Positions 2,154-43,866 of a DNA stretch of 64,000 bases are shown here, piece after piece (within the stretch, counting starts at the first letter, position 1; each line of letters begins with the position of its first letter). Source of the DNA: a bacterium (GTDB lineage: Bacteria > Planctomycetota > B15-G4); assembly GCA_030428785.1 (NCBI GenBank), contig JAUIEF010000004.1, positions 6,074 through 70,073 of the forward strand. Direction: 5' to 3'. A model generated the notes under the pieces. It made no database searches. It was given only the letters and a program-made list of their open reading frames with translations, and was not told the DNA's origin. A program made the position numbers and the translations under genes.

Positions 2154-2173
2154 CCCGCCCGACCCGCCCGGCG

Positions 2174-3763: not shown

Positions 3764-5100
3764 GACTTGTCCCCGCTCTTCTTCTTGCCGCCGGAGGGCT
3801 TCGCGGGCTCCGAGCCGTCCATGTCCGCGGGTGCGCCGCGCACGCTCGGCGGGAAGGCGTTGAGCTGGCGCCAGATCTCGTAGCCGAGGCTCACGTCCTC
3901 GAGCAGCAGCCAGCCGTTCGCGCGGCCGCCCTGGCGCAGGTACGGCATGTCCGGCCACGGCTCGTCGTCGGGGTCGGGCACGACGAGCACGCGCGTGCGG
4001 CCGTCGGACGCGGCGAGCGCGTCGACCACCGCCACGACGCCGCCGAAGGTGCCGACCGCCACGGACGGCCAGCCCGCGAACTGCACGGCCGGCCAGCCCT
4101 CGAACTGGAGGCGCGCCTTCCGCCCCGGCGTCACGAGCGGCGCGTCGTTGCCGCGCACCCAGAGCTCGACCGCGAGCGCGTCCGTGTCGGGGATGAGCTC
4201 GATGAGCGGGTCGCCCTGCGACAGGAGGTCCGCGGAGTTCGCGGCGTGCACGCGGAGGATCGTGCCGTCCCGGGGCGCCTTGACCGTCTGGGTCTTCTGA
4301 CGCTCCAGCTTCGTCATCGCCTCGGTGAGCTCCTTCTCGGCGAGCGCCACCTTCGCACGCGCCTCCTCCCGCGCCGACTTCGTCGACTCGATCTTCGCGG
4401 CGAGGTCCGAGCCCGTCTTGCCCATGCTGGCCATCTTGGCCTTCTCGTCGTTGCGCGCCCGCTCGACCTCCGCCTTGGCCGCCTCGACCTTGGCCTTCGC
4501 CGACCGGGACTCCGCCTCCGCCTTCTGGAAGTCGAGCTCGCTCGCGACGCGCTCCTGGAACAGCCGCCACTTGCGTTCGCGGTCCGCGAGCTTCTGCTCG
4601 TACTCGGCCTCCGCGGCCTCGAGCTTCTGCTCCTCGGCCCGCACCTTCTCGATGGCGCCGTTGAGCTCGAAGCGCGCGCCCTCGAGCGCCTGCTCGCGCG
4701 CGTCCTGGAGGAACCCGAGCTGCTGCTCGTAGAAGTCCACCTGGTCCTTGGCCGCCTGCACCTTGTTCGTGGCGAACTGGTACTGCTGCTCGAGCCGCTG
4801 GGCGTACTGCGGGTCCTGGTCCGCCATGACGGCGAGCACGTCCCCGAGCGACACGCGGGAGCCCTCGCGGACGTTCAGCTCGACGAGCCGGCCCGAGACG
4901 GGCGCGGGCAGGATCTGCGTGCGGTCGATGGGGTCGAGGGCGGTCACGCGGCCGGCGCCCGAGACGGTCTGCGTCCACGGCACGACGAGCAGCGCGACGG
5001 GCAGCACGACGATCATGAGGATCACGGCGCGCGCCAGCCAGCGGGACGCGCGCGGGGCGGGCACCCGGTCGAGCGCGGTGATGCGGGGCGCGGGCGTCAC
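3760..5100 (-). CDS. HlyD-family membrane fusion protein (type I secretion adaptor)
   Basis: N-terminal TM segment, lipoyl-like motif (APVSGRLVELNVREGSRVSLGDVLAV), a long Ala/Glu/Lys coiled coil and a beta-barrel C-terminus. The GTG start overlaps the ABC stop (GTGA). Confidence 0.9.
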   Translation of the reverse strand: MTPAPRITALDRVPAPRASRWLARAVILMIVVLPVALLVVPWTQTVSGAGRVTALDPIDRTQILPAPVSGRLVELNVREGSRVSLGDVLAVMADQDPQYAQRLEQQYQFATNKVQAAKDQVDFYEQQLGFLQDAREQALEGARFELNGAIEKVRAEEQKLEAAEAEYEQKLADRERKWRLFQERVASELDFQKAEAESRSAKAKVEAAKAEVERARNDEKAKMASMGKTGSDLAAKIESTKSAREEARAKVALAEKELTEAMTKLERQKTQTVKAPRDGTILRVHAANSADLLSQGDPLIELIPDTDALAVELWVRGNDAPLVTPGRKARLQFEGWPAVQFAGWPSVAVGTFGGVVAVVDALAASDGRTRVLVVPDPDDEPWPDMPYLRQGGRANGWLLLEDVSLGYEIWRQLNAFPPSVRGAPADMDGSEPAKPSGGKKKSGDKS

Positions 5101-6839
5101 GACGCGGCCTCCACGAAGGAGGCGGTGGGATCCGCCGACGGCGGCCCGAGGTCGAGCACGCGGTCGCAGCGCTCGTGGATGTCCGGCGCGTTCGAGACGA
5201 CGATCACGGTGCGGCCGTCCTCGCGCATGACGTCGAGCAGGCGGCGGCGTTCGTCGGCCTCCATGTGGTCCAGGAGGTCCTGCACCAGGATGATCCGCGG
5301 CCGGTCAGCGAGGGCGCGCGCGAGGAGCAGGCGTCGCGTCTCCCCGCCCGAGAGCGGCTGGCCGATGGGCCGCAGCGGCGTGTCGAGCCCCTCGGGGAGG
5401 AGGCTCACGCGCTCGCGCAGGCCCACGCGGTCGAGCGCGTCGCGGACGTCGGCGTCGGTGACGCCCTCGCGTCCCAGCGTGACGTTCTCGCGCAGCGTGC
5501 CGACGACCACGTCGGGGTTCGCGCCCACGAGCGCGGCGATGCGGCGCAGCGCGGTCGGCGAGTAGTCGCGCAGGTCGACGCCGTCGACGCGGACGGCGCC
5601 GTGCGTCGGCCGCCGCGCGCGCCACAGCACCTGCAGCAGGACGCTCTTGCCCGCGCCGACGGGCCCGGACACCGCGACGCACTCGCCGGCCGCGACGTCG
5701 AGGTCGAGCCCCGAGAAGAGCACGGCGCCCGTCGGGTGCGCCCACGCGAGCGACTGCACCTGCACGGCGGCGCCGCGCGCGCCCGCCTCGTCGGCGTCCC
5801 GTCCGTCGACCGTCCCCTCGTCCTCGACCTCGAGCTCGAGGAGCTGCCACACCTTGTCGGTGGCGGCCATGAGGTCGTACCAGCTCTCGAGGTGCTTGCC
5901 GAGCTTGGCCACCGAGCTCACGGCGAGCGTGACGATGACCTCCGCGGCGACGAGCTGGCCGAGCGTGAGCGCGCCGTTGATGACGAGCAGTCCGCCGATG
6001 CCGAGCAGCGCGACGCTCGACACGACCTGCAGGCCCAGCGCCGCGACGACCTGTCGGAAGAGCACCTTGAAGTGCGCGGCGCGCTTGTCGAGGTAGTCGT
6101 TGGCGAGGCGGTCCGCCTCGCGGTGCACCCACTGCTCCGACCCGCCCGACTTGAACACGTGCGGGTTGCGCGCGACCTCCTCGAACCAGCCGACGACCGC
6201 GTACTTGGCCTTGCTCTCCGCGATCGCCGTGGTCGTGCCGCGGCGCAGCGGCCCGAGCACGATCGTCGCGATGATCGCCAGCAGCACGACGTCGAACGCG
6301 AAGAGCAGCGGGTGGTAGAACGCGAGCACGACGAGCGCGACGAGCACGCTGAGCAGGATCGACAGGCCGTCGAGCAGCAGGAACGCGCTCGACTTCTGGA
6401 TCGTGATGATGTCGAAGAAGCGGTTGACGACCTCGGGCCCGTAGCGCGTGTCGTAGATGCTGAAGCGCACGCGCGGGAGGCGGGCGGCGACGTCGGCGAC
6501 CATGCGCACGAAGATCCGCCGCTGGACGAGCTCCACCGTCCAGGTCTGGAGCGCCGAGAGCACGGCGGCCAGCGTGAGGCCGAGGAGGAGCAGCCCGGCG
6601 ACGACGATGAGCGGCTGGAGCGCGCCGCCCATCGCGACGAAGTTCACGAGCGCCTGGACGGAGATGGGCGTCGCGAGCAGGAGGACCCCGACCGCCACCG
6701 CGAAGGCCGCGACGGCGATGAGGTCGCCCTTGTCGGGCCGGAGCAGGGCCAGGAGCCGCCGGAGGGGCGTGGCGGGCCCGCTCAGGGCGGGCGTGGCGCC
6801 GGGTTGGTGGCCGGCGTGGGAGGGTACCGCGTCGGTCAT
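5097..6839 (-). CDS. ABC transporter, fused permease/ATPase (type I secretion type, no C39 peptidase domain)
   Basis: In-frame ATG at 6839 (MTDAVPSHAG...). Six-TM exporter domain, Walker A GPVGAGKS, signature LSGGETRR, Walker B IILVQD. The 281-aa N-terminal extension in track ORF 5097..7682 is Arg/Ser-rich junk. Confidence 0.9.
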   Translation of the reverse strand: MTDAVPSHAGHQPGATPALSGPATPLRRLLALLRPDKGDLIAVAAFAVAVGVLLLATPISVQALVNFVAMGGALQPLIVVAGLLLLGLTLAAVLSALQTWTVELVQRRIFVRMVADVAARLPRVRFSIYDTRYGPEVVNRFFDIITIQKSSAFLLLDGLSILLSVLVALVVLAFYHPLLFAFDVVLLAIIATIVLGPLRRGTTTAIAESKAKYAVVGWFEEVARNPHVFKSGGSEQWVHREADRLANDYLDKRAAHFKVLFRQVVAALGLQVVSSVALLGIGGLLVINGALTLGQLVAAEVIVTLAVSSVAKLGKHLESWYDLMAATDKVWQLLELEVEDEGTVDGRDADEAGARGAAVQVQSLAWAHPTGAVLFSGLDLDVAAGECVAVSGPVGAGKSVLLQVLWRARRPTHGAVRVDGVDLRDYSPTALRRIAALVGANPDVVVGTLRENVTLGREGVTDADVRDALDRVGLRERVSLLPEGLDTPLRPIGQPLSGGETRRLLLARALADRPRIILVQDLLDHMEADERRRLLDVMREDGRTVIVVSNAPDIHERCDRVLDLGPPSADPTASFVEAAS

Positions 6840-6936
6840 CGGAGGGAGGCGGGAAGGGGGTGTGGCACTCACCGGGAGGCGGCGACCTCGCGCTGCCTGC
6901 GAGCGTCGTCGCGGGCCCTTCGCCCGGGACCCGCGT

Positions 6937-6975
6937 CCGGTTGCGTCGGGCCCGGTTGCGTCGGGCCGGTCGGTC
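6937..6975. repeat. 15-bp direct repeat, about 2.5 copies (ccggttgcgtcgggc)
   Basis: Copies at 6937-6951 and 6952-6966 are identical, with a partial third copy following. The repeat lies about 100 bp upstream of the ABC start, in the divergent intergenic region. Confidence 0.7.
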
Positions 6976-7236
6976 CGCCGCGCGAGGCGTCGTCCGGCGT
7001 CTCCCGGACCGCGGCCCCCCGTGACGAGACGCGGATGGTAGCGCTCGGGGTCTCCCGCACCACGGCAATTCGTTTCAGGCGAGGCCGGCCCGGAGCCAGG
7101 AGGCCGGCGCCCCTCGGCCGCGGGCGCGCCTCGCCTGTTACCCGCGCGTGACGCCCCGCGCGCCGCGGACGGGCGATCATCCCGTCGTCGCGCCGACCGT
7201 CGCGCGCGTCGTCCCGGCACCCGATCGAGCCCGCCC

Positions 7237-7722
7237 ATGTCCCGTCTCGCCGTCCTCGTCGCGCTTGCTGCCGCGCTCGTCGCCTTCGTGGCGCTCCCCT
7301 CCCGCTCCGACGACGGGCCCGCCGGGGACCGCCGCCGCCTCGCCCAGGACGCCGGCGCGACCGCCGCGGGCGGCGACCGGCCCGGGTCGCTCGCCGTCTT
7401 CGAGACCGTGGCGCCCGTCGAGAGCCTCATGACCGGCCTCGCCGGGAGCTTCTCGCGGGTGCGCGAGGCCCTCGAGGACGTCGAGGAGCGGAACCGCCTG
7501 CGCCGGGTCGAGAGCTGGTCGGAGGTCGTCGCGGAGCTCGCCAACGTCGTCGTGCTCCACGGGCCCGACCAGGCGTGGCGCGACCTGGCCGCCGACACGC
7601 GCGAGACGGCCCTCGAGCTCGCGTCCGCGTCCCGCGCCGAGGCGGTCGACGAGCTGCTGCTCGTGACGCTCGTGGACCGCATCGACGCGTCCTGCGCCGC
7701 CTGCCACGACGCCGACTACTGA
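7237..7722 (+). CDS. Class II (cytochrome c'-like) c-type cytochrome, secreted
   Basis: Signal peptide MSRLAVLVALAAALVAFVALPS, helical Ala/Glu/Leu-rich body, and a single CxxCH (CAACH) five residues from the C-terminus. This layout is typical of four-helix-bundle class II cytochromes c. Confidence 0.65.
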   Translation: MSRLAVLVALAAALVAFVALPSRSDDGPAGDRRRLAQDAGATAAGGDRPGSLAVFETVAPVESLMTGLAGSFSRVREALEDVEERNRLRRVESWSEVVAELANVVVLHGPDQAWRDLAADTRETALELASASRAEAVDELLLVTLVDRIDASCAACHDADY

Positions 7723-9476
7723 GCGGGCGCGGCAACCCGCAGCGGCAGGCGGAGCTCGAAGCGCCCGCCGTCGGCGCACGACCCGTCGAGCGAGAGCTCG
7801 CCGCCGAGCTCGCGCGCCAACGCGCGGGACAGCGCGAGGCCGAGACCGACGCCGGGCGCGACCTCGGGCGCGCGCCGCTCGAACGCGTCGAAGATCGTGC
7901 GACGGGCGCGCGGGTCCACGCCCGGGCCGTGGTCGCGCACGGAGAGCACGAGCTCGTCGGCGCGGACGGCGGCCCCCACCTCGATGCGCCGGTCGTCCGC
8001 GCCGGCGGCGTACTTGGCGGCGTTGTCCACGAGGTTGAAGAGCACCTGCCCCACTGCGGTCCGGTCGGTCTCGAGCGACCGCCCGGCGGCGCCGTCCACG
8101 TCGACCGCGAGCTCCATGCCCGCGTCGGCGGCGCGCCGCTCGAGCGTCGGGCGCACGCCGTCGAGCAACTCGTCGACCGTGCACCGTTCGACCTTCGTGC
8201 GCGAGCGGCCGTCCTCGAGCTGCGCGTAGGACAGCACGTTCTCGACGAGCCGCGCGAGCCGGTCCGACTCGTCGCGCAGCGTGTCGAGGTACTCCTGCCG
8301 GCGCGCGGCGTCGGTGACCATGCCCTCGGCGAGCATCTCGCTGTACATGCGGAAGGTCGTGAGCGGCGTGCGCAGCTCGTGCGTCACGGCGGAGGCGAAC
8401 CGGCTGCGGCGCTCGCCGAGCGCGAGGCTGGCGCGCACGGTGTGCCCGGCGGCGCCGACGGCCATGCCCGCGGCGACCCACACGAGCAGCAGCGCCCAGC
8501 GGACCGGCGTCATGCCCTCCGGCGCGTCGGCGACGGGGAACGACGGCTGCAGCACGGCCGGCACGGCGGCGAGCTCGAGCCCCCCGTCGTCCGGCGACGG
8601 ACCGTCCACCGGGAGGAGCCGCGCGTCGGGGAGCAGGTCGCGCACCTCGCCGAGGAGCTGCTCGCGGAGCACGGGCCAGTCGACCTCGAAGCCCTGGACG
8701 AGCCGCTCGCCGCCCACGTCCACGCGCCGCACGTAGAGCAGGTCCTCCCCGGTCTCCATCCACACGGGGACGAGCGGACCGACGTCCACGACGGGCAGCC
8801 CGGCGAACGGGTCGGGCAGGCCCTCCGGCACGAGCACCTGCGCGTCGTCGAGCACGTTCGACGCGGCCTGCTTCGCCTGCTGCGCGCGCTTGCCGAGCTC
8901 GAGCGTGTCGCGCGCGGGCTCGGGCTCCACGAAGTCCATGCACTCGAGGCGCGCCTCCGAGCGCTCGAGCGCGTCCGAGAGCGTCGCGTGCCCCGTGTGC
9001 CGCGCGAGCTCCTGCAACCGCGCGCCGTGCGTCTCCGCCGTCTCCGGGCCGATGCACGTCTGGAGCGCGAGCACGGCCTGGCTCCCGCGCGGCACCTGCG
9101 GCGAGCGGAACGTCCCGTCGGGCGAGACCTGGAAGTGCAGCGGGAAGACGTCCGACGCGAAGGTGAGCAGCGGCGACGCCGTGAGCACCTCGCGGCTGTC
9201 GAGCGGCTGGAGCATGCGCGTGTACGCGCGCTCCTGCGGGTAGTACGACGAGTACTCGAAGTAGGGCCGCGCCGCCTCGCGCGCGAGGAGCGGCGTGAGC
9301 CGCGAGTCCATGCGCCACAGCGCGAGGCGCAGCTGCTCCTGGCGCGCGGTCTCGGTGCGCGCGTCGAGCTCCGCGCCCTCGAGCCGCAGCACGACGACCG
9401 TCACCCACACGAGCACGACGGTGAGCAGCGCGACGCCCGCGCCGAACCAGCCCTGGAGGCTCCGCGTGCTCCTCAC
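7716..9476 (-). CDS. Sensor histidine kinase (two TM segments, large periplasmic domain, HisKA + HATPase_c)
   Basis: H-box HELRTPLTTF, N-box LFNLVDNAAKY, G-boxes DHGPGV and GVGLGLALS. The GTG start overlaps the regulator stop (GTGA). Confidence 0.9.
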   Translation of the reverse strand: MRSTRSLQGWFGAGVALLTVVLVWVTVVVLRLEGAELDARTETARQEQLRLALWRMDSRLTPLLAREAARPYFEYSSYYPQERAYTRMLQPLDSREVLTASPLLTFASDVFPLHFQVSPDGTFRSPQVPRGSQAVLALQTCIGPETAETHGARLQELARHTGHATLSDALERSEARLECMDFVEPEPARDTLELGKRAQQAKQAASNVLDDAQVLVPEGLPDPFAGLPVVDVGPLVPVWMETGEDLLYVRRVDVGGERLVQGFEVDWPVLREQLLGEVRDLLPDARLLPVDGPSPDDGGLELAAVPAVLQPSFPVADAPEGMTPVRWALLLVWVAAGMAVGAAGHTVRASLALGERRSRFASAVTHELRTPLTTFRMYSEMLAEGMVTDAARRQEYLDTLRDESDRLARLVENVLSYAQLEDGRSRTKVERCTVDELLDGVRPTLERRAADAGMELAVDVDGAAGRSLETDRTAVGQVLFNLVDNAAKYAAGADDRRIEVGAAVRADELVLSVRDHGPGVDPRARRTIFDAFERRAPEVAPGVGLGLALSRALARELGGELSLDGSCADGGRFELRLPLRVAAPAQ

Positions 9477-10177
9477 GTCGACGGCACCTCGACGGCGCCC
9501 AGGCGGTAGCCGGCGCCGCGCACCGTGACGATGAGCGCGGGCTCGTCACGGTCGTCGGCGAGCTTCTCGCGCAGCCGCGCGACGAGCATGTCGACGGTGC
9601 GCGTGTGGAGCCCGCGCGGGTCGAGCCCCCAGACGCGCTCGAGCAGCTCGTCGCGCCCCACCGGCCGGTCGCCGGTGCCCGAGAGGTACGCGAGGAGCTC
9701 CGTCTCCCGCTCCGAGAGGCCGACGGTCGCGCCGTCGGGCAGCGTCGCCCGGCGCGCCGCGAGCTCGACGAGCCGCCCGCCGAGCCGGAACGAGCGCAGG
9801 CCCTTGGGACGCTCCGGCGCGCGACGCAGCACCGCGGCGACGCGGGCCAGGAGCTCCTTGGCGCTGAACGGCTTGACCACGTAGTCGTCGGCACCGTTCG
9901 TCAGGCCGGTCACGCGGTCCTCCTCCGCGCCGCGCGCCGTGACCATGATGATCGGCAGGCCGGGCAGCGTGCGTCGCAGACGGGCGAGCACCTCGAAGCC
10001 GTCGGCGCCGGGGAGCATGACGTCGAGCAGCACGAGGTCGGGCACGGCCTCCTCGACGAGGCGCAGGGCGAGCAGCCCGTCGTCCGCCTCGCGCACCGCG
10101 TGCCCGGCGAAGCCCAGCGCGTCCACGAGCCCGCGCCGGATGGCGGGGTCGTCCTCGACGACGAGCACGTCGGTCAC
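9473..10177 (-). CDS. OmpR/PhoB-family response regulator
   Basis: Receiver domain (VLVVEDD ... LLDVMLPGADG ... KPF) plus a winged-helix C-terminus (VRGAGYRL). GTG start with GGAG about 10 nt upstream. Confidence 0.92.
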   Translation of the reverse strand: MTDVLVVEDDPAIRRGLVDALGFAGHAVREADDGLLALRLVEEAVPDLVLLDVMLPGADGFEVLARLRRTLPGLPIIMVTARGAEEDRVTGLTNGADDYVVKPFSAKELLARVAAVLRRAPERPKGLRSFRLGGRLVELAARRATLPDGATVGLSERETELLAYLSGTGDRPVGRDELLERVWGLDPRGLHTRTVDMLVARLREKLADDRDEPALIVTVRGAGYRLGAVEVPST

Positions 10178-10257
10178 GGTCGGGGCTCCGGGGGCGCGCG
10201 GACGGACGACCGCGCGCGGAGTCGCGCACGGCCGCCCGGATCACGCCGCATCGTACG

Positions 10258-10280
10258 CGGCCGGTCGCGGGGACCGGCCG
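10258..10280 (-). terminator. Stem-loop downstream of the VWA gene
   Basis: Perfect 9-bp stem cggccggtc/gaccggccg with a 5-nt loop, 13 nt past the VWA stop codon. There is no U tract. Confidence 0.35.
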
Positions 10281-18292: not shown

Positions 18293-18657
18293 CGTCCGTC
18301 CTCCGTCGTGGGTGGTTCGTCGCCGGGCGGCGACGGCGGTCCCGGGTGCGCGCCCACGGGTCCGGTCTCCGGCTCCTCGGGGTTGCGCCGGCCGGTGATC
18401 TGCTCGTAGATCGTCAGCGGGAGCAGCAGCGTGTCGGCGACCAGGCTGAACGGCACGTCGAAGATGAGGAGCGCCGCGATGCTGCCCTCGCCTCCCTCCG
18501 AGGCGCCGCCGAACACCGCGGCGACGTCCATGACGGTACCGCTGTAGATCCACGGGCCGTCGTAGCCGGGCATCGTCCGCGAGGCGATCGTGCCGCAGCC
18601 CGTGTGGGCCAGCACGGCGATCACGAGCGCGACGCAGGTCGCCGGGATCCGCTTCAC
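18289..18657 (-). CDS. YceK/YidQ-like small lipoprotein
   Basis: In-frame GTG at 18657 preceded by AGGAGGAGG. Lipobox-like HTGCGTI, with PGYDGPWIYSGT and DVPFSLVADTLLLP motifs. Confidence 0.7.
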   Translation of the reverse strand: MKRIPATCVALVIAVLAHTGCGTIASRTMPGYDGPWIYSGTVMDVAAVFGGASEGGEGSIAALLIFDVPFSLVADTLLLPLTIYEQITGRRNPEEPETGPVGAHPGPPSPPGDEPPTTEDGR

Positions 18658-18859
18658 CGGGCCTCCTCCTTCCGTCCGTGCGTCGCCGGGCGCGGCGGAC
18701 GCGGGCGGGGCAGCATACCAGCCACGCCCGGACGGTCCCGACGCGCTGCCGGAGGCGACGAGGCGCGGCGCGCGATCGGGGATAGACTCTCCGCGGTCGC
18801 ACCCCTTGAGGCGGACTCCCGCGACGGCCGGTCGCCCGGCGCGTCGCCCCCGGCGTGTC

Positions 18860-21034
18860 TTGTCGTCGCTCCCCGTCCTCGCTCCCCGCTCGTCCGCGCG
18901 CTCCGCCCGCCTCGCCACGCTGCTCGCGACGCTGCCCGCCCTCGTGACCTGCGCCGCGCCGCCGCGCGCCGGGCCCGAACCGCGACCGGACATCGTGCTC
19001 GTCGTCGCGGACGACCTCGGGTTCTCGGACCTCGGCTGCACAGGCGGCGAGATCGCGACGCCCGTGCTCGACGCGCTCGCGCGGGAGGGCGTGCTCTTCA
19101 CGCGCTTCGCGACGCAGCCGCGCTGCTGCCCGTCGCGCGCGAGCCTGCTCACCGGGCGTCACCCGCACGCGGTGGACATGGGCTGGATGGCGCACGACGT
19201 CGGCGTCGACGGCTACCGCGGCACGCTCGACCCCGCGGTGCCCACGATCGCGGAGCGGCTGCGCGACGCCGGCTACGGCACGGCGATGGTCGGCAAGTGG
19301 CACCTCGGCGCGTCGCCGACGGACGGTGGCGCGCCCCTCGGCCGACCGCGCGAGCGCGGCTTCGACCGCTTCTTCGGCATGCTCGGCGGCGCGGGCAGCC
19401 ACCACGACCCGCCGTACCTCCTGCTCGACGACACGCCCGTCGCGCCGACGACCGGCTTCCACGCGACGACGGCCTACGTCGACCGCGCGCTCGCGTTCGT
19501 CGACGGGCACCTCGCGCGACGCCCCGACGACCCGCTCTTCCTCTACGTGTCGCTGTCCGCGCCGCACTGGCCCATGCATGCGTCCGACGAGGACATCGCG
19601 CGCTACCGCGGGCGCTACGACGCCGGGTGGGACGTGCTCCGTGAGGCGCGCCGCGTCCGCCAGGTCGACGCGGGCGTCGTCGACCCGGCGTGGGGCCTCG
19701 CGCCGCGCCCGCCCGACGTGCCGGCGTGGGACGACGTCCCCGACCCGCGCTGGCAGGCGTCGCGCATGGAGGTCTACGCCGCGATGGTCGACCGCATGGA
19801 CCGCGAGCTCGGCCGCCTCGTCGAGCACCTCCGAGCGCGCGGTCGGCTCGAGCGCACGCTCTTCGTGTTCCTCTCCGACAACGGCCCGTCCGCGGAGGAG
19901 AATTCGAGTCTCGGTCCCGTGCGTCCGGCACGCCCGCCGCCCACGCCGCTGCGCCTCGCGGACGCGCGCGCGCCGCAGACGCGCATCCGGCCCGCGCTCA
20001 CGCGCGCCGGCGAGCCCGTGCGCACGGGCTACGGCGTCCCGCCCGGTCCGGAGTCGAGCTTCGTCGCCGTGGGTCGCGGCTGGGCGTCGCTCTCCGCGAC
20101 GCCGTTCCGCGGCAGCAAGAGCCGCCTGTACGAGGGCGGCGTCGCGGTGCCGCTCGTCGTGCACTGGCCGGCGGGCACCGTGCGCGCCGGGTCCCTCGAC
20201 CGCACGCCGTGCGACCTGCTCGACCTCTTCGCGACGTTCGTCGACGCCGCGGACGCCGGCGCGCCCGACGACGAGGGCACGAGCCTCCTGCCCGCGCTGC
20301 GCGGCGAGCCCGTCGACGCCGGGCCGTCGTACTGGGAGCACGAGGGGCGGCGCGCGGTACGGCTCGGCGACCGCGTGCTCGTCGCGGACGGAGAGTCCGC
20401 GCCCTGGGAACTCTACGACCTCGCCGCCGACCGCACGCAGCGGCACGACCTCGCGGCGAGCCGGCCGGACGAGGTCGAGACGCTCGCCGCGGCCTGGCAG
20501 GCCTGGGCCGAGCGCAACGACGTCCTGCCGCTCACCCCCTACCGTCGCCTGCCGATGCCCGTGTTCTCGACGGCTCGACGGTTCCGGCTCGCGGAGGGCG
20601 CGACGCTCGGGCGCGAGGCGTCGCCGGACCTGCGCGGCGCCGCCTTCCGCGCGCGCGTGGAGGTCCTGTCGGGCGACGGCGACGGCGTGCTCGTCGCGCA
20701 GGGCGGCGACGCGAACGGCTGGTCGCTGTCCGTCGAGCGCGGACGGCCGGCGTTCGCCGTTCGTCGCGACGAGGAGCTCGTGCTCGTCCGGGCGACGTCA
20801 CCCGTCGCGGCGCCGTTCACCGTGGAGGCCTCGCTCGCGGCGGACGGCGCGGTCGTGCTGCGCGTCGTCGCCGCGCGCGTGCTCGAGGAGCTCGTCGACG
20901 AGGCGGGCGGCACGATCCCGGCCATGCCCGTCGAGGGGCTGCAGGTCGGCCGCGACGACGGCGTGCCCGTGCTCGGCGAGTCCGCGCCGCCGCCGTGGCC
21001 CGGGCGGCTGCGCGTCGAGGTCGAGCTCCGCTGA
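18860..21034 (+). CDS. Arylsulfatase (Cys-type, formylglycine-dependent) with C-terminal LamG/concanavalin-like domain
   Basis: DIVLVVADDLGFSDLGCTGG followed by the CCPSRASLLTGR sulfatase signature. The last roughly 240 aa look like a lectin/LamG fold. The start is uncertain: in-frame TTG at 18860 or at 18806, and the track start 18590 overlaps the divergent gene. Confidence 0.85.
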   Translation: MSSLPVLAPRSSARSARLATLLATLPALVTCAAPPRAGPEPRPDIVLVVADDLGFSDLGCTGGEIATPVLDALAREGVLFTRFATQPRCCPSRASLLTGRHPHAVDMGWMAHDVGVDGYRGTLDPAVPTIAERLRDAGYGTAMVGKWHLGASPTDGGAPLGRPRERGFDRFFGMLGGAGSHHDPPYLLLDDTPVAPTTGFHATTAYVDRALAFVDGHLARRPDDPLFLYVSLSAPHWPMHASDEDIARYRGRYDAGWDVLREARRVRQVDAGVVDPAWGLAPRPPDVPAWDDVPDPRWQASRMEVYAAMVDRMDRELGRLVEHLRARGRLERTLFVFLSDNGPSAEENSSLGPVRPARPPPTPLRLADARAPQTRIRPALTRAGEPVRTGYGVPPGPESSFVAVGRGWASLSATPFRGSKSRLYEGGVAVPLVVHWPAGTVRAGSLDRTPCDLLDLFATFVDAADAGAPDDEGTSLLPALRGEPVDAGPSYWEHEGRRAVRLGDRVLVADGESAPWELYDLAADRTQRHDLAASRPDEVETLAAAWQAWAERNDVLPLTPYRRLPMPVFSTARRFRLAEGATLGREASPDLRGAAFRARVEVLSGDGDGVLVAQGGDANGWSLSVERGRPAFAVRRDEELVLVRATSPVAAPFTVEASLAADGAVVLRVVAARVLEELVDEAGGTIPAMPVEGLQVGRDDGVPVLGESAPPPWPGRLRVEVELR

Positions 21035-21167
21035 CGCGCGCCGGCCGCGCGGCTCAGGACGCGTCGTCGAGCTCCGCTGTCGGACGCGCCGGCCGCGCGG
21101 CTCAGGACTCGTCGTCGAGCTCCGCTGTCGGGCACGCCGGTCGCGCGGCTCAGTACACGTCGTCGAG
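21014..21167. repeat. About 3.2 copies of a 46-48-bp tandem repeat spanning the convergent gene junction
   Basis: tcgagctccgctg recurs at 21021, 21067 and 21115. gtcgtcgag recurs at 21063, 21111 and 21159. Each unit carries the palindrome gccgcgcggc (variant in the third unit) and gctcag(g/t)ac. Confidence 0.85.
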
Positions 21168-22463
21168 GACCACCGTGAGCGCGCCGTCGGCGAGGCGCAG
21201 GGTCGCGCCGTTCAACACGGGCTGGATCATGGCGTGCACGACGTCGACGCCGGTGACCGGCGGCGCGCCGACGGAGAGCGCGAGCGCGCCGCTCGGCGGG
21301 ACGAGCCCGATGAAGCGCACGCCGACGAAGGGCTGCGCGACGAGCAGCGTGCCGGGCGACGCGCCGAGGTCGCCCCACGCGGGCTCGACGCCGAAGATCG
21401 CCCAGACCGCGTCGCCGGGCGCGCCCGTCACCGTCGCGGAGAGCGTGTCCGACTCGCGCGCGACCGCCGTCGACGCGAACGGCAGCGCCGGGCCGGGGAG
21501 CACGTCGACCGGCGTGCCGAGCGGCGAGATGTCGTCGCCGGCCGGCGGCGACGCGCCGCATGGGGACCCCGAGTAGACGCCGGGCGGCCCGCCCGCGACG
21601 GGCGTGTCGACGAGCCGGACGGTCGAGGGGGCGCCCGTCGCCACGAGCCCCTCGCCGCCGCGTCGCGCGGGGATGCACGGCACGAGGAAGCCCGTCGTGC
21701 CGTCGCCGCCCTGCCCGCCGGTGATCGACCCGCCGGTCGCGAGCAGCACCGCGTCGTCGACGACGACGCCCGCCGAGCCGACGGTCGACGGCATGAACTC
21801 GGTGAACGCGTCGAAGCCGTCGTAGCCGTCCGCGCCGCGCAGCGTGCACGCGTGCAGCGACACCGACGAGCGCTCGACCCGCAGCGCGGGCGACGTCTGC
21901 CCGGCGGTCTGCGAGGCGTAGTCGTCGACGAGCCGGCCGACGAGCGTGCTGCGCACGAGCGCGACGCCGGCGCTGTCGCGCACGACGACCTGCGGCTCGG
22001 GCGGGATGGACGAGAAGGCCGCGACGCCGCTGAGCCCCGTCCAGTCGACGACGGCGTCCTGGAGCAGCACCGTGCCCGCGCAGTCCGCGATCGTGAGCAT
22101 CGCGCGGTGGTCGGACGTCTCGCCGAAGAACGACGAGAGGTTCACGATGGAGACCGTGCCGCCGACGGGCAGGTTGCGCACCTCGAGACGCTCGACGTTC
22201 ACGGACGCGCCCTCGTCGAACACGAGGAACAGGCCCTTGCCGTCGATGACGGCCGAGCCGTAGAGGCCGTCGCGGACGTGGACCGTGTCGCCGTCCGCCG
22301 CGGCGTCGATGCCGGACTGGAGCGTCTGGTGCGAGTGCCCGGACGCCGGGTTCACGACGTGGACCGAGCCCTGCGCGGCGACGCTCGCCGCGGCGAGCAG
22401 CAGCGCGAGCGCGGGAAGGACGCGGCGGGACGGGCGCAGGGGACGGCGGAACGCGGGTCGCAT
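21150..22463 (-). CDS. Secreted right-handed beta-helix (pectate-lyase-fold-like) protein
   Basis: In-frame ATG at 22463 with signal peptide MRPAFRRPLRPSRRVLPALALLLAAASVAAQ. The N-terminus SGIDAAADGDTVHVRDGLY is typical of PbH1 proteins. The C-terminal roughly 110 aa weakly resemble the shared module described in the findings. Confidence 0.75.
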   Translation of the reverse strand: MRPAFRRPLRPSRRVLPALALLLAAASVAAQGSVHVVNPASGHSHQTLQSGIDAAADGDTVHVRDGLYGSAVIDGKGLFLVFDEGASVNVERLEVRNLPVGGTVSIVNLSSFFGETSDHRAMLTIADCAGTVLLQDAVVDWTGLSGVAAFSSIPPEPQVVVRDSAGVALVRSTLVGRLVDDYASQTAGQTSPALRVERSSVSLHACTLRGADGYDGFDAFTEFMPSTVGSAGVVVDDAVLLATGGSITGGQGGDGTTGFLVPCIPARRGGEGLVATGAPSTVRLVDTPVAGGPPGVYSGSPCGASPPAGDDISPLGTPVDVLPGPALPFASTAVARESDTLSATVTGAPGDAVWAIFGVEPAWGDLGASPGTLLVAQPFVGVRFIGLVPPSGALALSVGAPPVTGVDVVHAMIQPVLNGATLRLADGALTVVLDDVY

Positions 22464-22711
22464 GGCGGGCTCCGGGGCGGTGCGTCGGGTGTCGGCGACG
22501 GGCGGAGCCGATCGTACACCGGCCCGGGCGACGCGGGGCGCGGAGGTGCCGACGTGCTCCGCGTCGCGACGCTCGTGAGCGCCGGGTGAACGCCGCGTGA
22601 CCAGACACCGCGCGCGCCGGAGGGATGCTGGATCGCACCGGGCGGCGAACGCCCCGTAGAATGCGGGCTCTCCGCGACCCGCTGCGACCCCGGACCGAGG
22701 ACGAGACACCG

Positions 22712-24724
<2,013 letters not shown>

Positions 24725-24746
24725 TCGCGGCTAGCCGCGCGCGCCC

Positions 24747-26225
24747 TCACGGCGCGCGCGAGCGCAGGCCGTTCGTCGCCGCGTAGCCGTAGAAGGCCGC
24801 CGGGTCCGGCATCCACGCCTGCCAGAAGAGCGAGGCGCCCGACGGCAGACCCGGCGGGAAGCTCGTCCCGACGACGAGCCCGCCCGCCGCGTCGAGCGGG
24901 AAGGCGACGACGGCGTCCGGGCTCGGCACGAGCTTGCCGCCCAGGAACGGGATGCCGAGCGCGACCGTGCCCGCGATGACGTACGCCTGGCCCGACGGCG
25001 GGCCGTCCGTGATCGTCAACGAGATCGGGCTCCCGGGGATGAGCGAGCCGCAGCCCGTGAGCGTCGGGACGCCCTGCGTGCCGACGAGCCCCGTGGGGAT
25101 CGACGACCAGGGGTCGGGCAGCGCGGAGCCCGTGACGTCGAGCAGGAACTCCATCGCGTCGCACGCGACGGTCTCCGCGAGCGCCGCCGGCAGCACGACG
25201 TCCGCGAGGCCGCTCGGGTCCGACGCGGTGTCCTGCAGCACGAGCCGAGTCCCCGGCACCTGCGCCTTCCACGCGAAGCCGGACCACGCGCTGTGCGGGT
25301 CGGCCTCCGAGTCCGTGTCGTACGGCGGCGCGAGGTACGCGGACCCGACGCTCGACGTGTCGTACTCCAGCCACAGCGGGAGCGCCTGCGTCTGCGCGGC
25401 CACCGCCGGGTCGAGCCCGAACCCGAGCGGGCTCGCCTCGAGCAGCCAGGCCGGGTCCGTGTCGGAGAGCTCGATCGCGAGCTGGTCGTAGCCGCCGGGC
25501 TGCGCCACGGGGAAGTGCCAGGCGTTGAACATCGCGGGCGGCTTCGACTGCGCGAACACCGGCCACCACGTCGCGCAGTCCTCGAGCAGACCGCCCGCGA
25601 GGTGCGTGTCCATCGTCTCCTGGCCCTGCGGGTTCGCCCAGAGGCCCGAGCGATCCGGCCCGACGAGGCACCACATCCACACGAGCGCGCTCGCGCTCAC
25701 GCCGCGCGCGACGAGGCGGTCGGGATCGATGCCGAGCAACGACGCGTTCCACTTGAGGTGCTGCACGAGCATGACCGCGTCCTTCTGCGGCATGGGACGC
25801 AGCGGGTCGAGGTAGGGCGCGACGCTGCCGGAGTAGCCGGGCGGCACGCCGGCGCCGGGCGGGAGGAAGACGCCGTTGCCCGGGTAGGTCACCGGGTTGC
25901 CGGTGCCCGGTCCGCGCACGATCGTGCAGGTCGCGGACACGACGGCGATGCCCGCCTCGAGCGCGTCGTGGAGCACGCCGTCGTCGTCGGCGATGAACGG
26001 CAGCAGGTCGGAGCGGTTGAAGCCCTTGAGGCTCAGGTCGACGAGCACCGGGTAGCCGCCGGGCGGCGGCGATGTCTGCGGCAGGTAGAGCCGGTAGCGC
26101 TGGAGCGGGTGCGGCGCGGGGACGGACGGACCGGCGTAGCTGAACGGACCGGCGCTGGGCGTGTAGACGGTCTGCGCCCCGCAGACCCCCGCGAGGGTCA
26201 GCAGGACGGCGAGGCAGGCGCGCAT
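24747..26225 (-). CDS. Secreted alpha/beta-hydrolase-like protein with shared C-terminal module
   Basis: Signal peptide MRACLAVLLTLAGVCGAQ. The esterase-like core has YPVLVDL and RLVARGVSASALV (a GxSxS nucleophile-elbow-like motif). The hydrolase assignment is tentative. Confidence 0.7.
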   Translation of the reverse strand: MRACLAVLLTLAGVCGAQTVYTPSAGPFSYAGPSVPAPHPLQRYRLYLPQTSPPPGGYPVLVDLSLKGFNRSDLLPFIADDDGVLHDALEAGIAVVSATCTIVRGPGTGNPVTYPGNGVFLPPGAGVPPGYSGSVAPYLDPLRPMPQKDAVMLVQHLKWNASLLGIDPDRLVARGVSASALVWMWCLVGPDRSGLWANPQGQETMDTHLAGGLLEDCATWWPVFAQSKPPAMFNAWHFPVAQPGGYDQLAIELSDTDPAWLLEASPLGFGLDPAVAAQTQALPLWLEYDTSSVGSAYLAPPYDTDSEADPHSAWSGFAWKAQVPGTRLVLQDTASDPSGLADVVLPAALAETVACDAMEFLLDVTGSALPDPWSSIPTGLVGTQGVPTLTGCGSLIPGSPISLTITDGPPSGQAYVIAGTVALGIPFLGGKLVPSPDAVVAFPLDAAGGLVVGTSFPPGLPSGASLFWQAWMPDPAAFYGYAATNGLRSRAP

Positions 26226-26396: not shown

Positions 26397-27374
26397 TCAG
26401 CCGTCGGCGCGGGCCTCGGCGCGCACCCCGTCCTCGCGCCCGCCCCGCGTGAGCAGCCAGCCGTCGAGCCACCCGAGCACCCCGGCCGCGAGCACGAGGT
26501 ACATCCCGGCCAGCGCGCGCGCCGTCGTGAGCTCGTCGAGCTTCACGAGCACGACGAGCAGCCCGAGCGCGAAGACGTCGAGCATCGCCCACGCGCCGAG
26601 CGCGAGCGCGAGCCGCGCGCCGCGGCAGGTCTCCCCCGGCAGCCAGCGGAAGCGCAGCAGCAGGAGCGCGCGCACCGCCGGGACGCCCAGCACGAAGACC
26701 GCGAGCGCGACCGCGAGGAGCGCCTCGCCGTCGGTGAGCAGCTGCCGCGTCGAGCCGACGAGCGCGAACTCGTTGTGGAACAGCATCGCCTTGCGCACGT
26801 CCAGCACGGGGAGCACGCACGCCGCCGCGAGCGTCGCCGCCGACGCGGTCGACAACCAGCGACCGCCCGCGCCGCCGCGCTCGAGGGTGCGCGCGCGGTG
26901 ACCGTCCGGCTCGTTCATGCGCACGACGAGGTGGCAGCACACCATGGAGAGCAGGACGGTCGCGCCGAACAGGTGGATGCCCGGCTCCGAATCCGCGTTC
27001 GCGATGAGCCCGAGGCGGATCGATCCGACGAAGGCCGTCACGATGAACACGTCGAGCATCGACCACTTGCCGTAGCGGTCGAGGAAGCGCGTCACGCGCG
27101 ACCTCGTCGCGGGCCGCCCGAGGTCCGTGAGCATGACGCCGAGCACGACGAGCTTGAGCGCGGGAAACACCGCCGAGAACAGGAGGATGAGCGGCGCGAG
27201 GATCCAGTTGCCGTCGTCCCACATGCTGCGGACGCCGGTGAGGATCGAGTAGACCTCCGGGTCCGATGCGACCCGACGGAAGGTCACCGTGGGCAGCGTC
27301 AGGCCGTACGCGAGGCCGACCGCGCAGGTCAGCAACAGCACGACGACGGCGGCTCGGGATCCGCGGGAGGACAT
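26397..27374 (-). CDS. Paraquat-inducible protein A (PqiA) family integral membrane protein, two PqiA repeats
   Basis: Motifs SMWDDGNWILAPLILLFSAVFPALKL and KWSMLDVFIVT, with a second half carrying WAMLDVFALGLLV. The internal ATG at 27374 is preferred over the TTG at 27386. Confidence 0.8.
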   Translation of the reverse strand: MSSRGSRAAVVVLLLTCAVGLAYGLTLPTVTFRRVASDPEVYSILTGVRSMWDDGNWILAPLILLFSAVFPALKLVVLGVMLTDLGRPATRSRVTRFLDRYGKWSMLDVFIVTAFVGSIRLGLIANADSEPGIHLFGATVLLSMVCCHLVVRMNEPDGHRARTLERGGAGGRWLSTASAATLAAACVLPVLDVRKAMLFHNEFALVGSTRQLLTDGEALLAVALAVFVLGVPAVRALLLLRFRWLPGETCRGARLALALGAWAMLDVFALGLLVVLVKLDELTTARALAGMYLVLAAGVLGWLDGWLLTRGGREDGVRAEARADG

Positions 27375-27482
27375 CTCCGGATTCAAGACGCCGCGCGCGG
27401 GGTCGTCAAGTCGCTAGACTCGTCGCGCGCGACCGGGCGTTCGGGACCCGGCGCGCACGCACCTCCCACGGGAAGAGAACCC

Positions 27483-41258: not shown

Positions 41259-43679
41259 GTCGAGGAAGGTGCCGCCGCTGCCGCCGAGCACGAGCCGCAC
41301 GACGAGCGTCTCCGCCTCGCCGTCCCAGGTCCACGCCGTGGCCGCGGCGCCCTGCACCGCCGCCACCGAGGCGAGCGGCGGCGTCGTCGCGCCGTCCACC
41401 GTCACGAAGAGCGGCGCGGACCCGGCGTACGGGATCGCGACCGTCGTGGCGTCGCCCGGGAAGCCGAAGCGCAGCTCGAGCCGGAAGTCGCGCGTGGCAC
41501 CGACGGGGAAGGCGAAGGCGTAGTCGTCGGGCAGCAGGACGTTCATCGCGTACGCGCTGCTGTTCACGGAGATGCCGATGTCCTGGGTCGCGCCGCGCGA
41601 GAGCGACGCGAGCGACACGTGGGCCGGCGCGCTCCCGGACTCGTCGCGGAGGCGGAGGTTCGCGTAGCGGTTGCCGGCGAGGTCGCCGGGCACGAGGAGC
41701 GCGTTCGCCGACGCGTCGTAGACCGCGTTGCCCGGCCGCAGGAGCGGGGTCGCCGCGGCGACGAACCAGCCGGCGTTCCCGGTCAGCGAACCGTCGTCGT
41801 CGTGGAGCAGCAGGCTCGCGTTTCCGCTCGCGAGCGCGGGCGTCGGCTCGTACCAGGCGGGCTCGGCCTCCTGGAGCGTGATGCCGGACACCTTCAGGCG
41901 CGGGTCGATGGCCCAGCGGTTGTCCGTGCGCAGCTGGCCGAAGGCGGCGGCCTCGCGCACGGCGCCCTGGATCGTCGTCCAGCGGAAGCGCGCGTAGGTG
42001 GTGTCGACGACCTCGACGTGGCCCTCGTAGAGCTCGTGCCCGAGGAGCGGCGCGCCGGGGGTGTTCGGCGCGGGCAGGCTGCGGCCGTAGGCGAGCTCGG
42101 CGGCGGACGTCGGCGTCCCGACGTTGTCGCTCTCGCCGACGACGACGCTGTCCTCGAGCACCGTGAAGTTGTCGCCGTCGGACTGCAGGCCGTCCGACGC
42201 GAAGAACACGGCGGTGAGGTTGTCCGCGAGCATCGCCTCGCGCCAGGTCGCCTTGATGTCCGAGGCGCGGTACGAGATCCCGATGCCGCGGTTCTTGTAG
42301 GCCGTGAAGCGAAGGAACTCGCTCGGCGCGGCGGGCGCCGGCTGCGCGAGGTAGTCGTACTTGAAGAAGCCGTTCTTGCCGTTCGAGTGCGCCGTGTTGT
42401 CGACGAAGACCACGGGCTCCTTCAACGCGGCGGCCGTCGAGATGTCGTACCAGAAGCCGTGGTCGCGCGAGCCGGCGGCCACGTTCCCCACGAGCACGTT
42501 CTCCGTGTTCTTGATCCAGAAGGTCGACGGCGTCGCGTCGCTGGGGTCGAGCTGCGCGGCGAAGGGCGGCCGGCGCGTCGAGAGGCCGAGGTTGCCCACG
42601 AGCCGGTTCCGCGTCTCGGTGCCGTCCTCCATGTAGTAGGTGTGGCCGAGGACGTCGTGGCAGACGTTGTCCTGGAGCACGACGTCCTGCGTGCCGTGCA
42701 GCACGATGCCGCGGTTCCACGAGTGGTGGATGCTCGACGATCGGATGTACGAGCCGGGCACGGACCCCAGGAGGTGGAAGTGCACCGGGTAGCGCCCGAG
42801 GAGCCCGGCGTCGCCGAGCCCGTCGAACTCCACCCACGAGACGCGCACCCGCGTCGCGCCGACGGCGGAGAGGAAGCGCACGTGCCCTCCGCGGTCCTCC
42901 GCGACGCCGGGCGCCGTGAACGCGATGTCGCGGTCGAGCAGCGCGACCTCGGCGCGCTCGTCCACGCCGAGCAGCTCGACCTCGCCCCAGTGCGTGTAGG
43001 CGAGCGGCTGGTCCAGCCCGACGAGCGTCCCGCTCGCGTCGACGGAGGTGATGACGCGCTCCTCCGCCTGGGCGAAGTCGTAGTCCGTGGACGCGACGAC
43101 GAGCGTCTCGCCGGGGCGCCAGTCGACGGGGCTCTCGAGCTGGAGCGTCGTCGCGCCGGCGGGCGCGGTCGCCGCGAGCTGCAGCCAGCTGTGCGTGCGC
43201 GGCGCGCCGTGGAGGTCGAGCACGCCGCCCTCCTCCACCTCGAAGGTTCGCGAGAGCGGATCCGTCGGCGGGTAGAAGCGCTCGCCGAGCCGGAGCTCGA
43301 GCGCGTGCGGGTACGGGAGCTGCTCCGTGCCGGCGCGGAACGTCCCGCGCACGGCGACGTGGTCGGCGGTGAGCTCGAGCGACGGGGCGCAGCCGACGAC
43401 GAGCGCGCCCTCGACGATGAGGTCGCGCAGCGGCGGCGGCGAGACGTCGAGCACGACGGTCGCGCCGACGGGGATCGTGACGGTCGCGCCGAGCGCGGGG
43501 ACCGGCTCGCCGAGCGCGGCCCAGGTCGCGGGGTCGGACCAGCGCGCGGCGCCCGGCGGCAGGACGCAGGCGTGCTCGCGTTGCGCGCGGCCGACGGCCG
43601 CGGTCGGCGCGAGCTGCGCGGGGAGCGCGGCAGGGAACACGACGAGCACCACGAGGCCGAGCGTCCGGTGCAGCAGCAT
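41223..43679 (-). CDS. Secreted G8-domain protein with beta-helix region (CEMIP/TMEM2/PKHD1-like architecture)
   Basis: In-frame ATG at 43679 preceded by GGAGGAGG. Signal MLLHRTLGLVVLVVFPAALPAQ. The G8-like N-terminus is RWSDPATWAALGEPVPALGATVTIPVGATVVLDVSPPPLRDLIVEGALV. Downstream motifs are GRYPVHFH and HHSWNRGIVLHGT. Confidence 0.8.
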   Translation of the reverse strand: MLLHRTLGLVVLVVFPAALPAQLAPTAAVGRAQREHACVLPPGAARWSDPATWAALGEPVPALGATVTIPVGATVVLDVSPPPLRDLIVEGALVVGCAPSLELTADHVAVRGTFRAGTEQLPYPHALELRLGERFYPPTDPLSRTFEVEEGGVLDLHGAPRTHSWLQLAATAPAGATTLQLESPVDWRPGETLVVASTDYDFAQAEERVITSVDASGTLVGLDQPLAYTHWGEVELLGVDERAEVALLDRDIAFTAPGVAEDRGGHVRFLSAVGATRVRVSWVEFDGLGDAGLLGRYPVHFHLLGSVPGSYIRSSSIHHSWNRGIVLHGTQDVVLQDNVCHDVLGHTYYMEDGTETRNRLVGNLGLSTRRPPFAAQLDPSDATPSTFWIKNTENVLVGNVAAGSRDHGFWYDISTAAALKEPVVFVDNTAHSNGKNGFFKYDYLAQPAPAAPSEFLRFTAYKNRGIGISYRASDIKATWREAMLADNLTAVFFASDGLQSDGDNFTVLEDSVVVGESDNVGTPTSAAELAYGRSLPAPNTPGAPLLGHELYEGHVEVVDTTYARFRWTTIQGAVREAAAFGQLRTDNRWAIDPRLKVSGITLQEAEPAWYEPTPALASGNASLLLHDDDGSLTGNAGWFVAAATPLLRPGNAVYDASANALLVPGDLAGNRYANLRLRDESGSAPAHVSLASLSRGATQDIGISVNSSAYAMNVLLPDDYAFAFPVGATRDFRLELRFGFPGDATTVAIPYAGSAPLFVTVDGATTPPLASVAAVQGAAATAWTWDGEAETLVVRLVLGGSGGTFLDGTETRVRVVGD

Positions 43680-43816
43680 GCCGCCTCCTCCATCCGCGGA
43701 TCGGTGGACGGACGCGACGCGTCGCCGTCGCCCGGGCGCCGCCCCCCGGCGACGTCGGGGCCATGGTATCGGTCGCGGCCCGATCCGTGCGGTCCCGATC
43801 CCCGCGGTTAGAGTGA

Positions 43817-43843
43817 GCGCTCGGTCGAGCGCCCCCGCGGGGG
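43817..43843. promoter_or_regulatory. Two adjacent palindromes in the divergent intergenic region (candidate operator)
   Basis: gcgctcg-gt-cgagcgc (7-2-7, 43817-43832) overlaps by one base the perfect 12-bp palindrome cccccgcggggg (43832-43843). Both lie between the G8 gene and the gene starting at 43867. Confidence 0.25.
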
Positions 43844-43866
43844 CCCGGACCACGGGAGAAGACGAC

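Follow-up and report, generated by a model that had tools for sequence, protein, structure and literature searches.

A mostly C-terminal module shared by unrelated secreted proteins of high-GC Planctomycetota, with a possible role as a docking address

In several described systems many unrelated secreted proteins are brought to one address by a shared element. Dockerins occur as one copy per protein, mostly C-terminal and sometimes N-terminal or internal, on diverse secreted passengers; they are expanded in particular lineages and dock to a common partner. The C-terminal domain (CTD) of type IX secretion system (T9SS) cargo is described in PMC11285876 as a compact 3+4, seven-strand Ig-like sandwich. 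Here we consider a module of about 125 residues that ends three predicted exported proteins (B, C and D) encoded in a stretch of 64,000 nucleotides from a bacterium of the Planctomycetota (GTDB lineage B15-G4; contig JAUIEF010000004.1, positions 6,074 to 70,073). This whole stretch, called the window below, has a G+C content of 74%. We tentatively read the module as a docking address common to many exported proteins. It matches no Pfam-A or NCBIfam model, and we found no description of it in the literature.

Four open reading frames (ORFs), A to D, were taken over from the original prediction, according to which B, C and D have clearly alignable tails of about 110 residues and A has a weaker version of the same tail. 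The genes and the module copies are as follows (positions in the window).

21150-22463, minus strand: protein A, the "beta-helix" protein, from the ORF list, with a plausible Sec signal peptide.
22712..24724, plus strand: carrier B, which has a signal peptide, FG-GAP repeats, two PKD domains and the module at its end; its longest ORF begins at 22625.
24347..24721, plus strand: the module of B, made up of its final 125 residues; the stop codon comes directly after ...LSNGVTATTP, and profile positions 2-126 are aligned.
24747..26225, minus strand: carrier C, with a signal peptide, a cargo of ~350 residues and the terminal module.
24750..25118, minus strand: the module of C, made up of its final 123 residues; the stop codon comes directly after ...ATNGLRSRAP.
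61145..62926, plus strand: carrier D, with a signal peptide, FG-GAP repeats and the terminal module.
62552..62917, plus strand: module copy in D, 122 residues, ending ...ASNAVQATTP, followed by E, I and the stop codon.

Judged from their sequences, the tails of B, C and D are homologous, i.e., they are copies of one module. BLASTP aligns the tails of C and D at 38% identity over 132 aa (E 5e-20) and those of B and C at 26% identity over 124 aa (E 2e-7); the alignment of B with D (E 3e-20) takes in the FG-GAP repeats as well. An independent hidden Markov model (HMM), built from 48 modules of other organisms and from no window sequence, was run on the six-frame translation of the window and matched exactly three places, in D (2e-40), C (1e-37) and B (7e-25), the next-best ORF having an E of 1.7; all three are thus assigned to the family by a profile built without them. 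An HMM made from the three window tails found no further copy in the same translation. The family consensus reads W-x-D-L-G...G-x-P-x-L-x-G-x-G-x-L...P-F-K-G-G-T-L-V-P-x-P-D and, further on, W-P-x-G-x-P-S-G...Q-x-W-x-x-D...A-S-N-[AG]-L-x-x-T-T-P, and the motif pattern proposed earlier is consistent with it. The alignable tails of the three proteins are therefore real by BLASTP and by the independent HMM, and their positions are essentially those first given; only the length was put too low, since the module has about 123-126 aa.

Protein A has no place in the family. When its tail was tried as a fourth, if distant, member, the family HMM gave it -0.7 bits and hhalign a probability of 0.4%, and the protein has no match in the HMM scans of the window with three profiles, so that the "weaker version" attributed to it is not borne out. 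The word-indexed search returned no homologues of A, hence there was no profile from them.

All four proteins have a plausible Sec signal peptide at the N-terminus, as read from the sequence. In B it is MHARDTRRPLARLALLLALAAPAAA followed by Q (about 22712-22786; ...LALAAPAAA/Q), in C it is MRACLAVLLTLAGVCGA followed by QT (about 26175-26225; ...LAGVCGA/QT), and in D it occupies about 61145-61267 (...LTATPLAA/QT). The cargo labels proposed for B and D, PKD/FG-GAP and FG-GAP, respectively, are upheld by Pfam (PKD_4 1e-24 and FG-GAP_3 4e-36 in B; FG-GAP 3e-24 in D), while no Pfam family stands behind "hydrolase-like" for C or "beta-helix" for A; NCBIfam also gave nothing for C. None of the four tails is covered by any Pfam or NCBIfam family. 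The cargo of C is lineage-specific: only three homologues were found, 54-59% identical to C overall, with the module present in each and a G-x-S motif resembling a nucleophile elbow invariant in C and all three. The module is slightly less conserved between these orthologues than the cargo (48-55% versus 56-63% identity). The full-length AlphaFold model of C, made from a 4-sequence alignment, was too poor for use, with a predicted local distance difference test (pLDDT) score of 30.6.

Outside the window the family is large. An exhaustive HMMER search with a 22-sequence profile against 1.84 billion cluster representatives (clusters at 50% identity) matched 8,672 clusters at E<=1e-3, 5,147 at E<=1e-10 and 1,756 at E<=1e-30. 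In 167 of the 173 proteins retrieved the C-terminus is at most 3 residues beyond the end of the module; none of the 173 contains two copies, and the module is never in tandem. In complete genomic copies from other organisms a stop codon follows within six codons in 89 cases out of 94 (~95%). The loop motifs are strongly conserved across thousands of paralogues that otherwise share ~40% identity, and the 20 residues upstream of the module are of ordinary composition. The word-indexed protein search, seeded with the three window tails, gave 28 short proteins; in 27 of them the module ends at the last residue or at most 4 residues from it, and the remaining one (P0002) continues for ~32 more residues. 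That these "proteins" are mainly short is partly accounted for by gene splitting of the kind seen at 9156-10267 of locus L001, on a 5.29 Mb Planctomycetota metagenome-assembled genome (MAG) contig. There a homologue of B has been split by the gene calls into an FG-GAP protein of 282 aa and P0012 of 88 aa. The reading frame of the module reaches upstream to 9815 and overlaps the 3' end of the FG-GAP gene, which is in a different frame; a frameshift or a long-read assembly error is the probable cause.

The genomic copies that do not end at the stop codon are instructive, since four of the five have a real further domain after the module, and two types of these, with a metallo-beta-lactamase fold or a lectin, recur in more than one genome. 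The order signal peptide, module, metallo-beta-lactamase fold is found in the cultured Engelhardtia mirabilis Pla133 (locus L016, NZ_CP036287.1, locus positions 2827-4164) and in protein P0143; as it is common to two distant genomes, it is not an assembly artefact. An M12-like metalloprotease is followed by an internal module and a C-type lectin in L070 (1414-3633) and in L071 (E. mirabilis, 1345-3651), and in L003 (1564-3993) a further domain of 213 residues comes after the module. The domain is therefore autonomous and overwhelmingly, though not obligatorily, C-terminal. The expectation of further C-terminal occurrences was correct, as there are thousands, several per genome, ~95% of them at the extreme C-terminus, and no Pfam or NCBIfam domain accounts for them; a strict restriction to the C-terminus does not hold in view of the conserved N-terminal and internal architectures.

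The carriers have the appearance of exported proteins with little else in common. By a strict heuristic, at least 92 of the 129 full-length carriers have a hydrophobic N-terminus resembling a signal peptide, in accordance with the original prediction; many of the others either have an evident signal peptide that the rule overlooks or come from gene calls that are truncated. Lipobox-containing, lipoprotein-like N-termini are present in 10 of the 129 only. Carrier length varies from about 130 to 2,127 residues. When 91 carriers were scanned with Pfam, their passenger regions matched 43 families and the module matched none, so that the cargo proteins are indeed otherwise unrelated. Among the families are FG-GAP (21 proteins), PKD (7) and DUF7948/SBBP (6), and also SGL, NHL, ASPIC/UnbV, PA-IL lectin, MG2, beta-helix, Exo_endo_phos, peptidases C25, S8 and M12, GSDH, metallophosphoesterase and metallo-beta-lactamase. 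Some large exported proteins of the window are without the module, namely a sulfatase with a long C-terminal extension (18590-21034, plus strand), a G8/CEMIP beta-helix protein (41223-44018, minus strand) and an LruC/DUF4114/DUF4842 protein (54656-56377, plus strand); the module thus marks only a subset of the predicted secretome.

The taxonomic distribution was obtained from a scan of one genome per GTDB species with the exact 9-residue peptide GGTLVPSPD as seed, which is present in 21 of 165 modules only (~13% of the family) and in none of the three window copies. The 77 confirmed loci are nearly all from MAGs labelled Planctomycetota, and cultured Engelhardtia mirabilis Pla133, whose genome is complete, is also represented; one locus comes from a gammaproteobacterial MAG that is probably mis-binned. 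Their G+C content is 58-74% (median 70%), in line with the 67-70.5% given for the Saltatorellus/Engelhardtia/Rohdeia group (bioRxiv 10.1101/817700), and NCBI places Engelhardtia in Planctomycetia incertae sedis. In this motif-seeded scan the family is almost confined to a high-GC lineage of Planctomycetota that includes E. mirabilis. Up to six seed loci were found per MAG, which is a strong underestimate of the copies per genome, considering how few modules contain the seed. Carriers also tend to lie together: 16 of the 77 loci (about 6 kb each) contain two or three, and in the window B and C are convergent and 22 bp apart.

An AlphaFold2 model of the D copy (126 residues, 51-sequence alignment) has a pLDDT of 93.0, a predicted template modelling score (pTM) of 0.85, 11 beta-strands and no helices. 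The model supports an autonomous all-beta sandwich of the Ig/FN3 class, a beta-sandwich having been predicted for the tails, and Foldseek places it near no structure of PDB or BFVD. Against PDB no chain was matched at E<=1e-3, the top matches being generic sandwiches with a query TM-score (TMq) of at most 0.47 and an E of 5e-3 at best; they include the O-antigen-binding domain of Wzt and, besides it, LPMO10, PmoD, macromomycin, MD-2/NPC2 and the Ig-like domain of Brr2 Sec63, with CBP21/lytic polysaccharide monooxygenase (LPMO) at about E 3-5e-2. Nothing was matched at E<=1e-3 in the viral structures of BFVD, where the best match is a phage FN3-domain protein (E 8e-3, TMq 0.54) and the weak ones include galactose-binding-like and ConA-like proteins. 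Searches of PDB sequences with the 3- and 51-sequence profiles gave chance matches only (E 0.59 and 0.84), and a Pfam-A and NCBIfam scan of 51 modules at E<=5 gave only scattered single chance matches. As far as the predicted model is a guide, this is an uncurated family without a close structural relative in PDB or among viral structures.

The reading that we favour is that the module is a putative docking or anchoring address shared by secreted proteins, most likely at the cell surface; we would put the probability of this at roughly 45%. The carriers would be exported by Sec through the N-terminal signal peptide, as their sequences support, and the module would fold as an autonomous sandwich, as the model supports. 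One common partner in the envelope or the extracellular matrix may then recognise the conserved elements of the module (the PF-K-GG-TLVP-x-PD hairpin, the W-P-x-G-x-P-S-G loop, the Q-x-W-x-x-D strand and the A-S-N turn), and unrelated passengers, i.e., adhesin-like propellers, PKD proteins, proteases, nucleases/phosphatases and lectins, would be held at one place. The logic would be that of dockerins, SLH domains or T9SS CTDs (many cargoes, one address), and a binding domain of this kind would not need a free C-terminus. A single terminal copy, a signal peptide, dozens of passengers, many paralogues and one lineage together make the signature of a shared address module. The proposal that the tail is a sorting or attachment signal is in this respect partly supported by the family statistics; a signal that needs a free C-terminus is made less likely by the non-terminal copies, and no sorting machinery was identified.

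Several observations weigh against a common address. No partner, receptor or processing enzyme was found, and the flanks of the 77 loci have no recurrent non-carrier gene in common; as many as 34 of 138 carriers have at most 220 aa, i.e., little beyond the signal peptide and the module; 138 of 165 modules have Pro as their last residue, directly before the stop codon, and 71 have the ending TTP, so that the free end could matter; the O-antigen-binding domain of Wzt, a weak match (E 5e-3, TMq 0.40), leaves room for a glycan-binding role; and the taxonomic picture is built on a scan seeded with one exact 9-residue motif. The 10-20 kb contexts of L001 and L080 contain nothing suggestive of machinery, and there is no obvious candidate for a partner or machinery among the annotated genes of the window. 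The only large cluster around the loci consists of long antisense ORFs opposite the module (about 2800-3450, minus strand), observed in 22 loci (L003, L005, L006, L009 and 18 others); these form one BLAST cluster and are not genes but shadow ORFs, cast by a coding region that is conserved and of high GC.

The preference for the terminus makes it tempting to propose an outer-membrane export tag similar to the T9SS CTD, recognised in the periplasm by a translocon specific to Planctomycetota and taken over the outer membrane, followed by cleavage and, possibly, covalent attachment of the cargo. The signal peptide, the diverse passengers and the single terminal beta-sandwich are arranged as in T9SS cargo; the passengers include a C25 (gingipain-family) peptidase and many adhesin-like propellers; and the stop codon after ~95% of the modules, the frequent terminal Pro, the many carriers per genome and the restriction to one phylum in the motif-seeded scan all agree with such a tag. 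We nonetheless consider it unlikely. The conserved N-terminal and internal architectures, found also in the finished genome of a cultured organism, weigh against a signal that needs a free C-terminus and favour docking, as do the small secreted copies that nearly stand alone; furthermore, no Por_Secre_tail or NCBIfam sorting model is matched, 11 strands in ~125 aa are at variance with the seven strands described for the T9SS CTD in PMC11285876, and neither the window nor the loci contain candidate machinery. A bolder form of the proposal makes the module the cargo tag of an undescribed pathway of outer-membrane secretion or covalent surface attachment in the high-GC, largely uncultured clade of the Engelhardtia/Saltatorellus type. 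In function it would correspond to the T9SS CTD system, with a translocon or sortase yet to be discovered, the rare non-terminal copies being secondary derivatives; to this we give the same low credence.

A second possibility is that the module binds a ligand in the manner of a lectin or a carbohydrate-binding module (CBM), or mediates adhesion to an external substrate, e.g., an algal or biofilm polysaccharide. Its predicted fold has a weak likeness to the Wzt carbohydrate-binding domain (CBD), to LPMO/CBP21 and to the galactose-binding-like and ConA-like viral proteins, it is sometimes found at other positions or in near-standalone small secreted proteins, and the neighbourhood is rich in sulfatases and secreted enzymes. 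We doubt this role, too. The structural matches are all weak (TMq <=0.54); the module never occurs in tandem and stands at the terminus in the great majority of carriers, which sets it apart from most CBM, Ig or PKD modules; and the cargo consists mainly of FG-GAP/PKD/propeller proteins, proteases and phosphoesterases, glycoside hydrolases not being prominent. Moreover, some carriers already have a dedicated lectin (PA-IL or C-type) that binds a ligand, and the natural role of the module in these would be to hold the lectin on the cell, which again favours docking. Less probable still is a generic structural domain (a stalk, a spacer, an oligomerisation domain or a stabilising Ig-like sandwich) that was spread by domain shuffling within the lineage and has no common targeting role. 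The generic Ig/FN3-class fold, the failure to find a partner and the slightly faster evolution of the module than of the cargo in the C orthologues are what one would expect of it; however, spacers and stalks are typically internal and repeated, the loop motifs are strongly conserved across the paralogues, and the signal peptides together with dozens of unrelated cargo families point to a shared function.

Some features of the neighbourhood should be mentioned. The gap between the stop codons of B and C (24725-24746, 22 bp) contains a perfect palindrome, CGCGGCTAGCCGCG; it may be a hairpin terminator common to both genes, with no T-run. Carrier C is adjoined by a gene for a PqiA-family membrane protein (26397-27386, minus strand) with no PqiB/MCE partner annotated beside it; an identical protein C, again beside the PqiA gene, is encoded on a short Logan contig (L079, run SRR24442552). 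At 57559-61181 (minus strand), divergently from carrier D, lie the genes of an ECF (extracytoplasmic function) sigma factor (TIGR02999, 1e-55) and of a TPR-repeat Ser/Thr kinase (Pkinase 6.5e-37), which may regulate it; a second giant protein, of the Ser/Thr kinase-WD40 type, lies at 31481-35464 (minus strand). Positions 3760-10177 (minus strand) contain an ABC exporter of type I secretion appearance (861 aa, with a long N-terminal extension) and an HlyD-family adaptor, then a histidine kinase/response regulator pair. The exporter and the adaptor (3760-7682) were considered as machinery for the carriers and set aside, because substrates of type I secretion generally have no N-terminal signal peptide and the carriers do. 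Finally, a protein with HYR-domain/Ig-like repeats (141-2153, plus strand) ends in a hydrophobic helix plus ...MLRRA, which by eye looks like a membrane anchor of the CTERM type (similar to PEP-CTERM or IPTL-CTERM), with no NCBIfam sorting model matched at E<=0.01; if this anchor is real, the organism has at least two different C-terminal address systems.

Planctomycetota have a very large set of secreted and surface proteins, and the way in which these are moved and displayed is poorly understood. We found no description in the literature of a lineage-specific protein domain serving them as an address tag, and the Saltatorellota preprint (bioRxiv 10.1101/817700) makes no mention of secretion or C-terminal domains. 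The exported adhesin-like proteins and hydrolases marked by the module form a coherent set, neither Pfam nor NCBIfam contains the module, and its predicted sandwich fold looks new. The family can be used at once as a predictor of the surface and secreted proteome in mostly uncultured bacteria and as a handle for finding the partner or the machinery, the more so as a cultured organism, Engelhardtia mirabilis Pla133, carries it. If the module is a binding domain only, it is still a new domain family worth curating.

Comparison with known systems confirms the initial impression that the module is not a PEP-CTERM, LPXTG, autotransporter or T9SS CTD element, none of the 51 modules matching a Pfam or NCBIfam family at E<=5 apart from the scattered chance matches. 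PEP-CTERM/exosortase, LPXTG/sortase and GlyGly-CTERM share with it the logic of sorting many signal-peptide proteins to one address; their signals, however, are ~25-35 residues long (a motif, a transmembrane helix and a basic tail), whereas the module is a predicted folded domain of ~125 aa whose tails end ...SN[GA]xxxTTP with no hydrophobic helix and match no NCBIfam sorting-signal model. The autotransporter domain (PF03797) is a 12-strand barrel of about 250-300 aa; the module, at ~125 aa and modelled as a soluble sandwich, has no match to it. PPC (PF04151) is likewise a small beta-sandwich at the C-terminus of secreted hydrolases, but it is not matched either, and the cargo range of the module extends far beyond proteases. 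For CBMs and lectins there is no Pfam match, and the likeness of fold (Wzt CBD, CBP21/LPMO) is weak only. The best structural resemblance is to FN3/Ig-like domains and other sandwiches (phage FN3, TMq 0.54; Brr2 Sec63, macromomycin and MD-2/NPC2, TMq 0.36-0.46), none with an E below 5e-3. Domains of the FN3, Ig and PKD kinds usually lie inside a protein and in tandem; the module is single and terminal.

The T9SS CTD and the dockerin come closest in architecture. With the former the module has in common the Sec signal peptide, one terminal beta-sandwich on many unrelated passengers (C25 proteases, adhesins, propellers), many carriers per genome and one lineage at the level of a phylum. It differs in having no match to TIGR04183 or PF18962 (the four window proteins at E<=1, the 51 modules at E<=5), in its hosts, which are Planctomycetota and not Bacteroidota, and in its 11 predicted strands in ~125 aa against the 3+4 sandwich described in PMC11285876. 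The top 50 matches of the module in PDB by Foldseek include no CTD structure, and the annotated genes of the window include no T9SS component such as PorK/L/M/N, SprA or PorU/V. Finally, the T9SS CTD counts as a domain that always comes last, while ~5% of the module copies are N-terminal or internal (L016/P0143, L003, L070/L071). The dockerin (PF00404) is a Ca-binding duplicated loop-helix, unrelated in fold to the module, which is all-beta in the model, has no Pfam match and has no cohesin-like partner, either described or found here; in the statistics of its position, nevertheless, the module is nearer to dockerins than to T9SS CTDs.

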